Positions 60,916 through 64,000 of a stretch of DNA of 64,000 nucleotides are shown piece by piece. Made by a program: the position numbers and the translations under genes. Position 1 is the stretch's first letter, and the number at the start of each line of letters is the position of its first letter. Source of the DNA: an uncultured Planctomycetales bacterium. Lineage in GTDB: Bacteria > Planctomycetota > SBBH01. The DNA is taken from contig CAYVXZ010000005.1 in assembly GCA_964455625.1 (NCBI GenBank), positions 9,632 to 73,631 on the forward strand, read 5' to 3'. The notes beneath the pieces are model-generated. The model was not told the DNA's origin. It was given only the letters and a program-made list of their open reading frames with translations, and did not search any database.

Positions 60916-62026
60916 GTGCCGACCGACCTTTCCCAACGCCTCGACCTGCTTTCCGCCCGTTTCGGCGGGATCCGGGGGTCTCTTTGACCTTCCCGCGAAG
61001 ACGAGACGCCTGACCGAACTCCAGGAAAGGACGAAGGATCCCGCCTTCTGGGGCCGTCCCGAGGAGGCGCGCGCCGTCATCAACGAGACGAAGCCGCTCG
61101 CCGCGGTGATCGAGCCGGCGGAAAGGCTCGACCGCCAGCTCGCCGACCTCGTCGCCGCGCGCGACCTCGCGCGGGAATCCGGCGACGCGTCGTTCGAGAC
61201 GGAGCTCGCCTCGGGGCTCGACGCCTTCGAGCGGGACCTCGCGCGGTTCGAGTCGCAGATCCTCCTCTCGGGCCCCCACGACGCCGCCAACGCCTACGTC
61301 TCGATCCAGGCCGGGGCCGGCGGCACGGACGCGTGCGACTGGGCCTCGATGCTCGCGCGCATGTACCAGCGCTGGGCCGAGACGAAGGGGTACGCGACCG
61401 TCTTCACGGACCTGACGCCCGGCGAGGAGGCGGGGCTCAAGAACTGCACCCTCTACGTCAAGGGGGACTGGGCGTTCGGGCGCCTGATCGCCGAGCAGGG
61501 GGTCCACCGTCTGGTGCGGATCTCCCCCTACAACTTCAGCGGCAAGCGCCAGACGTCGTTCGCCTCGATCGACGTCATCCCGGAGATCGACGACGAGATC
61601 ACGATCGACATCCAGGAAGAGGACCTCCGGATCGACACCTACCGCGCGGGCGGCAAGGGGGGCCAGCACGTGAACATGACCGAATCGGCCGTCCGGATCA
61701 CGCACCTCCCCACCAACGTCGTCGTCCAGTGCCAGAACGAGCGCTCGCAGCACGCCAACCGCAAGGTGGCGATGAAGATGCTCGCCTCCCGGCTGTACAA
61801 GCGCGAGGAGGAAAGGCGGGACGCCGAGCGCGTGAAGGAGTACGGCCAGAAGGGGGAGATCTCCTTCGGCAGCCAGATCCGTTCCTACGTCCTGCACCCC
61901 TACCAGATGGTCAAGGACCACCGGACCGACTGCGAGACATCACAGGTGGAAAAAGTCCTCGACGGCGAGGCGCTGGACCCGTTCATCGACGCCTACCTCA
62001 AGTGGCGGGTGACGCTGCGAAAATAA
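60916..62026 (+). CDS. prfB: peptide chain release factor 2 (programmed +1 frameshift at 60982-60988)
   Basis: Frame 0: GTG..VPTDLSQRLDLLSARFGGIRGSL then CTT TGA C at 60982-60988, preceded by the SD-like GGGGG. The +1 frame continues DLPAKTRRLTELQERTKDPAFWGRPEEA...GGQHVN... to a stop at 62026. Confidence 0.88.
60982..60988 (+). other. prfB: RF2 programmed +1 ribosomal frameshift site (CUU UGA C)
   Basis: Sequence CCGGGGGTCTCTTTGACC: an internal SD-like G-run 3 nt upstream of the CUU-UGA-C slippery/stop context, as in autoregulated prfB. Confidence 0.85.
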
Positions 62027-62169
62027 TCAGCCAGCGGCGACTCCTTGAGGGTGGGCGGCGGGGAGGCGGAGGCGGGTCCGAGTGTTTTTTTGTCTTCGGC
62101 ACGACGGCATCAACGTCATCGCCCCACGTCATGCGGCCCCGGCCGGTCGCGGTCGTCCGGGGCGTGTGG

Positions 62170-62300
62170 AGTAGGCCCGGAGCATGGATGCGGAGGGCCG
62201 TAGCCGTCCCCGCGCTTCGCGGGCGGCGGCGCAACTCGAGTGACGAGCGGCACGGATGCCGCGAGGAATGTCCCCGGCGACTGCGACCGGCGGTAGGGGA
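62170..62300 (+). repeat. intergenic structured repeat element, copy 4 (3' half conserved, 5' hairpin degenerate)
   Basis: GAGCGGCACGGATGCCGCGAGGAATGTCCCCGGCGACTGCGACCGGCGGTAGGGGA matches the 3' half of the family core. Confidence 0.65.
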
Positions 62301-62306
62301 CGCTTT

Positions 62307-62660
62307 TTACGAAAAGAAAATGGGTGGATATTTATCAGGGTAATTTCCTGTCTTCAAAAACTGTGACGCATATCCGTGAATCATCATTGCCCATGCACCC
62401 CAGCCAAAGCCTCGATATTTTGACGCTATAAGGCTTTCTCGCTCCACCTCCTCAAAAGCATAAATCTCTGGTGGAAGCGCTCTTCCTTTCGACCATACGG
62501 TTGTTGGCTTGAATTCGTAACGCCCAGCCTTTTTGCTAAAGACCAGCTTCCCCACCACTTGCCACTCAGATGACTTCGAAAAATCTGGGGACTCCACAAC
62601 GTATTCATTCCCCTCGATGTCCTGTCGCGTCCGCATCAATCTGATGTGTACTTGACTCAT
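62307..62660 (-). CDS. hypothetical protein, probable immunity protein for the upstream RHS toxin
   Basis: 117-aa ORF 2 nt downstream of the RHS gene stop, within the same low-GC cassette. Confidence 0.45.
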   Translation of the reverse strand: MSQVHIRLMRTRQDIEGNEYVVESPDFSKSSEWQVVGKLVFSKKAGRYEFKPTTVWSKGRALPPEIYAFEEVERESLIASKYRGFGWGAWAMMIHGYASQFLKTGNYPDKYPPIFFS

Positions 62661-62662
62661 GG

Positions 62663-64000
62663 CTATCGGCCTAGCGGGAACAACTCCGGATGAGCTCTCA
62701 TGATCTCCGGGTGAAATAGATCGAGGAAAGTTACCCCTCGCGATTGCAAAGCAGCTCTGTGACTACCCATAAGATCCCCTGTCGCTCCAAAACGAGCCGA
62801 CTCCTTAAGCTCATGAAAATAAAATTCAACGTCCTGTCTCGTCGTTGCCCCCAAACGCAGACGATCAAGCATAGCTCTTTCTCCGGCTTGCAATCTAAGT
62901 TGATCTGCACGTGAAAATTCCGGGAGTTGATTTTTCAGCACCTCATCCAAATGCGCCTCTATGCGAACCAACCCTTTTTCCGTGATGCGTAGCGTTCCTT
63001 TTTCGGTTCGCGGGAGCACTCGCACAGCCACAGATTTCTCTGAAACCTTTTCGAGGGTGAACGTCACTCCTCCCATTTCTCCGACTAGGACCTCTTTCGC
63101 GCCGGTCACTAAGCGCGGAAGATTTTCTGGAGTCGGCACAGCGAGCTTTGGCGCGATCTTCACGGCCTGCACGACCGCGTTCATTTTCAGGAAATTCAGG
63201 AAAGCGCCCGCCCCTTGCGCCGCCAGCGCCACGTGAGGACCCAACCCTCGTGTCGACGCCTGGACATCGAGGAGCGTCCCCCATCTCTGCCTGACAGAGA
63301 AATCCTCGGCTGCTGCCACCAGCTCTCCCGCCGGCCGGAAAGTGACCTTCTCCACGAAATTCCCGAACAGCGGAATGAAGTTGTAGAAGTGGACATAGGC
63401 GTGTTCCCACCGCTCCTCGGCCTCCAGGGAGTCAAACCTGTCTCCGCCAAACATCTTTCCCCATCGCGCCTCGCCGAAGGGATCCACATAGTCGGTCGGG
63501 TTGTTGCCGACGTAGGCGTAGGTGCTGCGCCCCGTCCCCAAATCCGAGTAGGCCGGATCCCGGTGATAGAAGACCGCTTCACTCGGGTCATAGACCCTGA
63601 TCCCGGCGACATCGAGCCCTGACTCCGGGTTCTTCTCGTATTGGGCGTAGTCGTAGCGGTCGGTGACGGGATTTGGGGGCCCGGGAGGGGACGCACCCAA
63701 CGGCACAGGCTCCCCCCAGGCGTTCAGGCGCAGGGATTTCGCCACGCTCCCGGCGTTATCGAGCACCTGGATCGGGGTCCCCAGCTGGTCCGTGTTGTAG
63801 AGGTGCCTGACGCCTCCAAGGGTCAATCTCACTCTCTTGTCGTCGATCCCCAGGCCGTTGACGTAAAAAAGCCCCGGCAAGAGGCTTCCGGGGCTCCCCG
63901 TGTAGTCCGTCATCACGTCCGAGCCGTCGTTGATAAACCAGGTGTTGGCGCCAGAGGCAGGCAGACGCGCCAGGCGGTCCCCCTCTGGCGTCAGCAGGTA
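62663..64000 (-). CDS. RHS repeat-associated core domain protein with variable C-terminal toxin domain (C-terminal part; gene continues beyond window end)
   Basis: RYDYAQYEKNPESGLDVAGIRVYDPSEAVFYHRDPAYSDLGTGRSTYAYVGNNPTDYVDPFGE is the RHS repeat-associated core (TIGR03696-type) ending in DPxGE, followed by a ~265-aa unassigned C-terminal domain encoded in lower-GC DNA. The reading frame stays open upstream to position 64000. Confidence 0.8.
   Translation of the reverse strand, partial: YLLTPEGDRLARLPASGANTWFINDGSDVMTDYTGSPGSLLPGLFYVNGLGIDDKRVRLTLGGVRHLYNTDQLGTPIQVLDNAGSVAKSLRLNAWGEPVPLGASPPGPPNPVTDRYDYAQYEKNPESGLDVAGIRVYDPSEAVFYHRDPAYSDLGTGRSTYAYVGNNPTDYVDPFGEARWGKMFGGDRFDSLEAEERWEHAYVHFYNFIPLFGNFVEKVTFRPAGELVAAAEDFSVRQRWGTLLDVQASTRGLGPHVALAAQGAGAFLNFLKMNAVVQAVKIAPKLAVPTPENLPRLVTGAKEVLVGEMGGVTFTLEKVSEKSVAVRVLPRTEKGTLRITEKGLVRIEAHLDEVLKNQLPEFSRADQLRLQAGERAMLDRLRLGATTRQDVEFYFHELKESARFGATGDLMGSHRAALQSRGVTFLDLFHPEIMRAHPELFPLGR

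Follow-up and report, generated by a model that had tools for sequence, protein, structure and literature searches.

RHS proteins normally cleave themselves at a conserved core, and the DPxG boundary of that core classically delimits their tips. The modular framework of polymorphic-toxin tips, which takes in CdiA-CT/CdiI and others, was reportedly set out by Zhang et al. in 2012. Described RHS/YD-repeat toxins with such tips and immunity genes include Tse5 (PMC10684867), the Photorhabdus Rhs ADP-ribosyltransferase (PMC8661411) and the Serratia Rhs NADases (PMC10539506). Also described are the CRCT/CRCA modules of Rickettsia and other bacteria, whose CRCA antidotes are ~140 aa long (PMC9111745), and the Lipocone superfamily, a four-helix cone with an active-site His (H2), Glu (H3) and Asp (H4) and with membrane or periplasmic immunity proteins (PMC12419801). 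Here we compare with these systems the end of an RHS gene, and the small open reading frame (ORF) that follows it, on the minus strand of a 64,000-nt stretch of contig CAYVXZ010000005.1 (hereafter the window) from an uncultured Planctomycetales bacterium (GCA_964455625.1).

Our reading, to which we assign a probability of roughly 80%, is that this locus encodes the C-terminus of an RHS polymorphic toxin, made of a linker and an enzymatic tip of ~110 residues, together with a cytosolic immunity protein, in a foreign cassette. The domain architecture, the family membership, the strict synteny, the compositional foreignness and the absence of annotation or of a PDB fold neighbour are observed directly. 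The locus resembles the RHS/YD-repeat toxins, among whose members TcC of the Tc toxins is also counted as a relative, in its RHS repeats, its DPxG-ended core, its variable tip and the immunity gene directly downstream, and furthermore in the exchange of tip plus immunity gene by recombination and in the orphan cassettes of its relatives. It differs from them in a tip that lies outside the described toxin families and whose activity is not assigned by similarity, and in the ~155 unconserved residues that separate the predicted cleavage site from the toxin domain. The architecture of the system is textbook; the new part is the tip, which belongs to a large, cross-phylum and unnamed family.

The RHS gene is read from a minus-strand frame (62663-64000) that includes ...YVGNNPTDYVDPFGE and ...STYAYVGNNPTDYVDPFGE and is open as far as the window edge. 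The gene extends past that edge, and the window holds its last part only. The original prediction had recognized an RHS polymorphic-toxin C-terminus with a repeat-associated core ending at DPFGE, and both statements were borne out. The NCBIfam model TIGR03696 (Rhs_assc_core) matches fragment residues 94-176 (window 63473-63721) with E=5e-12 and 46.2 bits, against a cut-off of 32.5, over model positions 3-75 of 76, and stops with the G of the DPFGE motif, one residue short of its E. The core sequence also shows, farther upstream, the aspartates of R-V-Y-D-P...H-R-D-P, and a weak Pfam match to PF03527 (RHS) lies upstream of the TIGR03696 match. An exact full-length match to the RHS product, P0014 (2329 aa), which derives from an NCBI contig of 227.8 kb, carries PF05593 RHS repeats in 5 stretches (E=2e-43) plus DUF6531. 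Unlike the described RHS toxins, P0014 has an N-terminus that resembles a Sec-type signal peptide when judged by eye, and neither a PAAR nor a VgrG domain was recognized in its sequence. Pfam scans of eight large window ORFs revealed no secretion-system genes. Between residues ~1760 and 1900 of P0014 (partly window 63900-64000 and partly beyond its edge; L009 1-330), the RHS shell holds a segment of ~130 residues unlike YD repeats (…WASLDQTGGHTATLDFPSVQPVG…FRINFWNG…IQFEMDSGGGAPGRPNQAALNELQAF), which resembles a carbohydrate-binding or discoidin-like module and is matched by no Pfam model. Coordinates and base composition of the features are collected in Table 1.

Table 1. Features of the RHS tip locus in window coordinates, with overall G+C content (GC) and G+C content at third codon positions (GC3)
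Feature	Position	Strand	GC	GC3	Basis or remark
C-terminal RHS shell and RHS repeat-associated core	63470..64000	-	0.64	0.83	TIGR03696; ends ...YVGNNPTDYVDPFGE
Fragment residues 178-283, just after DPFGE (106 codons)			0.61	0.76	
Fragment residues 284-331			0.56	0.54	
Linker A, ~112 residues after DPFGE	63134..63469	-			ARWGKMFGG...KIAPKLAVP; composition like the RHS body
Linker B, ~42 low-GC residues before the conserved domain	63008..63133	-			GC3 change-point ~63133; covered by fragment residues 284-331
Conserved C-terminal toxin domain, 114 aa, predicted all-alpha	62666..63007	-	0.50	0.44	Homologues; 60-sequence alignment; AlphaFold2
Stop codon TAG of the RHS gene	62663-62665	-			Direct reading of sequence
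Putative cognate immunity gene, 117 aa	62307..62660	-	0.47	0.49	Homologues; synteny
Intergenic spacer, immunity gene to convergent prfB, 280 bp	62027..62306	.	0.71		Host-like composition

The tail that follows DPFGE comprises 268 residues, starting ARWGKMFGG. It had been proposed that a toxin domain of ~265 aa without assignable motif occupies this tail; the lack of a library match was upheld, but the conserved domain proved to be confined to the last ~110 residues. When the whole tail was searched against 5.8 billion proteins, five were recovered, all of which match the last ~40% of the query only, and the ~155 residues between DPFGE and the domain had no detectable homologues. A second RHS protein, P0022, has a body that is 27-35% identical to that of P0014 and a near-identical tip, and its ~160 residues from core to tip fail to align with the window linker. 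The same tip is therefore borne by an unrelated body and linker, which shows modular exchange; together with the confinement of homology to the last ~110 residues, the linker mismatch defines the toxin domain of Table 1 as the mobile conserved unit, which corresponds to residues 2216-2329 of P0014. These patterns make it quite improbable that the entire tail is a single novel toxin domain swapped in at DPFGE. The classical DPxG boundary of RHS tips and the absence of annotation along the entire tail would favor such a unit; however, the family domain measures ~110 aa in about 150 listed proteins, homology and linker behave as just described, and the compositional break lies at ~63133 and not at DPFGE.

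A profile search of 1.84 billion cluster representatives returned 336 matches at E<=1e-3, 62 at <=1e-10 and 13 at <=1e-30, so that at the most permissive of these thresholds the family comprises at least 336 clusters (50% identity). Among the 152 matching proteins listed, the median distance from the end of the domain to the C-terminus is ~6 residues. It always forms the very C-terminus of its carriers, which are RHS proteins whose N-termini hold DUF6531 or a transglutaminase, an SpvB/TcdB-RHS fusion (Tc-like), a teneurin-like YD-shell protein and PT-HINT proteins; some carriers are named 'filamentous hemagglutinin' by their sources. The occurrence of the same ~110-aa domain on scaffolds with that name and on PT-HINT scaffolds is a feature shared with CdiA-CT/CdiI tips; in contrast to these, the window carrier is an RHS protein and lacks a VENN or PT-TG boundary motif. 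At their sources, family members are annotated as 'hypothetical protein', 'filamentous hemagglutinin' or 'polymorphic toxin-type HINT domain-containing protein'; the homologues encoded on plasmids of Methylosinus trichosporium OB3b and Enterobacteriaceae A-F18 likewise bear the name hypothetical protein. The family spans at least 8 source-named bacterial lineages, including Cyanobacteriota, Bacillota, Pseudomonadota (with Rickettsia endosymbionts, one member coming from a Rickettsia endosymbiont of Ixodes), Bacteroidales, Armatimonadota and others.

Two of these plasmids deserve separate mention. On pAF18_1, an MPF_F-typed plasmid, a gene next to repA (L023 5272-6330) encodes a 352-aa hypothetical protein that carries the toxin domain at its C-terminus without an RHS, CdiA or HINT scaffold, and which may serve as an effector carried by the plasmid or as an addiction module. 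On pOB3b3 of M. trichosporium OB3b (L022, 81852-94142), a toxin-domain fragment annotated as a 73-aa hypothetical protein lies among dense IS66, IS6 and IS630 insertion sequences, several truncated 'RHS repeat-associated core domain-containing' genes and an Imm26 immunity gene. The region gives the impression of a graveyard, or a reservoir, of RHS tips.

The 117-aa ORF begins with an ATG at 62660, two bases (CC) after the TAG of the RHS gene. In the protein database, eight clusters are homologous to it (57-100% identity). Since 13 homologues align with it end to end and from the same start, with 22 invariant columns in the 14-sequence alignment, the ORF is a real gene; the conserved elements include Y-x-V-E-S-x-D-F, I/L-P-P and G-W-G-A-W. 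Its linkage to the toxin domain was examined by tblastn with both sequences, and the 15 loci fetched represent 9 distinct contexts besides the window. In every one of the 15, the gene that comes next after the toxin domain is a homologue of the ORF, and no more than ~15 nt separate the toxin stop from its start; two further homologues overlap an upstream gene by 4 nt. Among loci with readable DNA, the ORF was never seen apart from the toxin domain. The proposal that the ORF 2 nt downstream is an immunity gene is consequently borne out by its position and by its pairing in 15/15 loci, and neither a match of the domain to a known non-toxin domain nor conservation of the small ORF independently of RHS genes was found. 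Genetic linkage supports the view that the ORF behaves as the cognate immunity gene, a role that we keep as putative.

Over the range of loci in which the toxin drops from 76% to 53% identity, the ORF drops from 62% to 36%. Immunity proteins usually drift faster than toxins in toxin-immunity pairs. Faster evolution of the immunity protein and its replacement between clades are again traits shared with CdiA-CT/CdiI. More distant clades of the toxin domain are followed by unrelated small partners, of ~180 aa in Paenibacillus (L016 5459-6013) and Clostridium lundense (L018 5565-6101), neither of which matches Pfam, and of 90 aa, possibly a winged helix, on the Enterobacteriaceae plasmid pAF18_1 (L023 6324-6596). 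With three unrelated downstream partners, the one toxin family pairs with at least three immunity families. All three unrelated types lack signal peptides and transmembrane helices; the 117-aa protein has neither, its maximum 19-residue hydropathy being 0.57. AlphaFold2 models the latter as a beta-meander plus helices with a predicted local distance difference test score (pLDDT) of 65. Neither Pfam nor NCBIfam matches this protein, and a Foldseek search with the low-confidence model gave no match.

The fetched loci include six species-representative genomes, among them a Cyanobacteriota metagenome-assembled genome (MAG), Floridaenema evergladense and a Francisellaceae MAG. In four of the loci (L005-L008), the toxin domain sits on a 687-aa lipoprotein-type RHS protein (GCA_044223915.1). 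In four others (L001-L004), an orphan cassette lies behind a complete 1759-aa RHS gene and its 147-aa partner, and is followed by another pair of a toxin-like gene and a small ORF. Such arrangements bear on the alternative that the two genes are not a toxin-immunity pair but a delivery module or adaptor accompanied by a chaperone, or else a remnant that has decayed. We consider this highly improbable. It would accord with the atypical C-terminal tail of the window copy and with an activity that is deduced from sequence, yet the domain holds the C-terminal tip position on at least 5 kinds of toxin scaffold, it forms orphan cassettes after a complete RHS gene that has its own immunity partner, it keeps an invariant set of polar residues, neither ORF is broken and both are conserved, and distant clades join the domain to different small downstream proteins.

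One of these orphan arrangements (L001 279-7943; JGI Ga0634865_0001590) is a tandem orphan toxin-immunity array of the textbook type. Its cassette consists of a 203-aa toxin gene, whose hydrophobic N-terminus is a product of gene calling, and a gene for a 119-aa immunity homologue; a further 200-aa/124-aa pair follows, and the same array recurs in 24-33 metagenome contigs. In the lipoprotein-type loci (L005 8462-9385 and L006-L008), a gene for an IS200/IS605 Y1 transposase (PF01797) lies ~100 bp downstream of the immunity homologue on four independent contigs. A Y1 transposase beside the immunity homologue suggests a route for cassette mobility.

Composition sets the cassette apart from its surroundings. 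The window has a mean GC of 68%, and its housekeeping genes (guaB, asmA-like and prfB) have GC3 values of 0.92-0.95. A likelihood analysis of GC3 puts the change-point at fragment residue 289 (window ~63133), where the value goes from 0.80 to 0.47. The 5' edge of the cassette is thereby placed ~112 codons downstream of DPFGE, and the host-like spacer marks its 3' edge. The foreign cassette thus delimited (~62307-63133) consists of the last ~157 RHS codons and the immunity gene, with ~48-50% GC, and Linker B is the probable 5' edge of what was acquired. The drop in GC over the toxin and immunity DNA, noted in the original prediction, is real; its onset, however, is at ~63133 and not at DPFGE. 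The pair of genes lies in compositionally foreign DNA, as expected of the swapped toxin-immunity module that had been proposed. The genomes that carry homologous cassettes elsewhere have 31-61% GC, and there the cassettes match their hosts in GC, which fits acquisition from a lower-GC donor. We regard the toxin-immunity cassette as genuine and as horizontally acquired from such a donor. The GC3 of the RHS body (0.83) is itself below that of the neighboring housekeeping genes, and the whole RHS gene may be an older acquisition and the tip cassette a more recent one.

Orphan cassettes downstream of 62307, which had been suggested as worth a search, were looked for and not found; the 280 bp beyond the immunity gene lead directly to convergent prfB. 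No convincing terminator was present in the intergenic spacer, the promoter and terminator scan around the cassette remained at background level, and Rfam gave no match in the whole window.

Residue conservation was derived from an alignment of 60 sequences that are 24-68% identical to the window copy. The alignment contains seven invariant columns (H19, R49, D59, F62, H65, E66 and E69) and nine more that are conserved in at least 90% of sequences (G12, L20, M46, L50, Y63, A82, H83, H99 and F110). The family consensus reads roughly VTEKGLxRVExHL ... NxAMxxRLRxG ... DxxFYxHELKES ... AHxxAL ... LYHPDVI ... F, and its H-E-L-K-E motif is encoded at window 62801-62815. When inspected by eye, the remote Enterobacteriaceae plasmid homologue keeps all of H19, R49, D59, H65, E66, E69, H83 and H99. 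AlphaFold2, run on the family alignment, predicts seven helices and no strands with high confidence (pLDDT 93.7; predicted template modelling score, pTM, 0.87), and places HExxE on a long central helix (residues 57-76). According to this model, H65 and E69 would lie one helical turn apart and share a face, a geometry that would suit metal binding or a catalytic pair.

Searches of domain and structure collections left the domain without relatives, in agreement with the earlier suggestion that it may be novel. Pfam had no significant match for the window domain, for 6 close members or for 60 diverse members, and nothing significant was obtained from Pfam, NCBIfam, PHROGs and PADLOC when these were queried variously with the whole tail, the domain, the 60 family members and the immunity protein. 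Isolated weak library matches (LPD3, 0.014; NarE, 0.057) are at chance level for 60 queries. Searches of PDB sequences by phmmer and profile gave best values of E=0.17-1, to unrelated proteins, with E>=0.27 for the toxin profile. Foldseek with the toxin model gave a best E=1.6 in PDB and 0.67 in BFVD, with a template modelling (TM) score <0.4. A literature search with the motif strings found nothing.

Several known enzyme classes were considered as candidates and rejected. HNH/His-Me finger nucleases (AHH, LHH, SHH, WHH, GHH and HNH-EHHH) have no Pfam match in the window domain or the 60 members, and their beta-beta-alpha fold with its HH/HN signature is incompatible with a model without beta strands. 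HEPN RNases are defined by R-x(4-6)-H; inspection of the 60 sequences found no conserved Arg 4-6 residues before a conserved His, and there was no Pfam HEPN match. Zincins combine HExxH with a beta-sheet, whereas the motif here is an invariant HExxE, the model is all-alpha, and neither Pfam nor PDB gave a peptidase match. The related alternative of a minimal metallopeptidase or amidase, in which a zincin-like HExxE variant would act with a downstream His, appears unlikely. The i/i+4 spacing of H65 and E69 on one helix face, with E66 between them and H83 and H99 downstream, would recall the metal sites of zincins. However, zincins need a beta-sheet subdomain, none of them appears among the PDB fold matches, and an invariant Arg with an invariant Asp would be more usual in phosphate chemistry.

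Returning to the reading of a cytoplasm-acting tip, we consider the toxin to be probably a hydrolase that acts in the cytoplasm, judging from the sequences of tip and partner proteins. Nucleases are prevalent among cytoplasm-acting tips. This prevalence, the cytosolic immunity proteins and the combination of invariant Arg and Asp with His and Glu are the reasons why we favor a metal- or His-dependent phosphodiesterase (nuclease), at somewhat less than even odds; other activities, such as nucleotide or cofactor depletion and protein modification, take up the remainder of our belief.

The location of the immunity proteins also bears on whether the toxin acts at the envelope, on lipid head groups or on lipid II like Lipocone proteins, or as a pore former. 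This seems very unlikely to us. The small all-alpha domain with conserved His, Glu and Asp superficially resembles the small, soluble, all-alpha Lipocone tips, which have conserved His and acidic residues on core helices (PMC12419801), and hydrophobic Ala/Gly-rich stretches precede the domain. Linker A contains a moderately hydrophobic Ala/Gly-rich helix (GLGPHVALAAQGAGAFLNFLKMNAVVQAV; maximum 19-residue hydropathy 1.11), and in ~37% of family members a strongly hydrophobic segment lies within the 80 residues upstream of the domain. The domain itself, however, is hydrophilic, and Lipocone partners are transmembrane, lipoprotein or periplasmic proteins (PMC12419801), whereas the three unrelated immunity types found here are cytosolic. 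The layout of the motif differs as well, with H on helix 1, HExxE on helix 4 and H on helix 5 as against H2-His/H3-Glu/H4-Asp. No Pfam model was significant, hence none of the Lipocone type, and TelC/SAA are absent from the top 50 PDB fold matches. Membership in the Lipocone superfamily was accordingly rejected.

Conceptually, the closest parallel to the toxin domain and its partner is provided by CRCT/CRCA (PMC9111745). Both systems have an unannotated C-terminal toxin domain of similar size that is common to Rhs and contact-dependent inhibition (CDI) proteins across phyla, a small antidote that is cytosolic, and traces of lateral transfer. Homology between the two was tried and rejected. An hhalign comparison of the family profile with the prototype from the supplement of that paper (REIS_1424; the REIS_1424 / NF27_IC00050 domain) gave a probability of 0.2% and E=0.27. 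Furthermore, the CRCT prototype has no HExxE motif, unlike the family described here, and CRCA antidotes differ from the 117-aa protein in their N-terminal motif.

A working model for the locus can be put together from these elements. The RHS protein would be exported via Sec and cleaved after DPFG(E), its 268-residue tail being encapsulated or released. The ~110-aa domain would then enter the cytoplasm of the target cell, perhaps assisted by the linker with its Ala/Gly-rich hydrophobic helix, and act there as an enzyme whose presumed active site comprises HExxE together with H19, R49, D59, H83 and H99. The producer would be protected by the 117-aa protein binding the toxin, the two being probably translationally coupled across the 2 nt that follow the stop codon. 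Recombination would have brought in the cassette and displaced an earlier RHS tip.

A number of points weigh against this reading. We infer toxicity, cleavage and neutralization, as well as the cytoplasmic site of action and the catalytic chemistry, and the chemistry in particular is a guess. The domain has no sequence or fold similarity to a known nuclease, peptidase or other enzyme at the values given above. The spatial clustering of its conserved residues is assumed from helix periodicity, and the model of the immunity protein is of low confidence. The window copy ends ...FPLGR as against the usual family tail ...F-x-P-x-W, which could reflect slight C-terminal erosion. Finally, the reading leaves the role of the ~155-residue linker unexplained.

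New enzymatic activities have been discovered again and again in polymorphic toxins, RHS proteins among them; examples are NADases, RNA ADP-ribosyltransferases, deaminases (later base editors) and (p)ppApp synthetases. Given that the family is large and unnamed, that its confidently predicted structure has no Foldseek neighbor in PDB and that its set of invariant, catalytic-looking residues is unusually clear, the tip is a tractable candidate for a new toxin activity. A stronger proposition, which we entertain only tentatively and hold to be doubtful, is that the domain represents a new all-alpha enzymatic toxin fold with an HExxE site plus His, Arg and Asp, a cross-lineage toxin with at least three immunity folds whose activity or target is undescribed among interbacterial toxins. 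A domain-database model for the family would annotate hundreds of tips that are now 'hypothetical protein'.

The gene that converges on the immunity gene, prfB (window 60917-62026, plus strand), encodes release factor 2 and displays the classical programmed +1 frameshift at 60982-60988. A short ORF from the GTG at 60917 ends ...GGG TCT CTT TGA C; a G-rich run resembling a Shine-Dalgarno sequence precedes the frameshift, and the +1 frame enters a 306-aa ORF (61106-62026).

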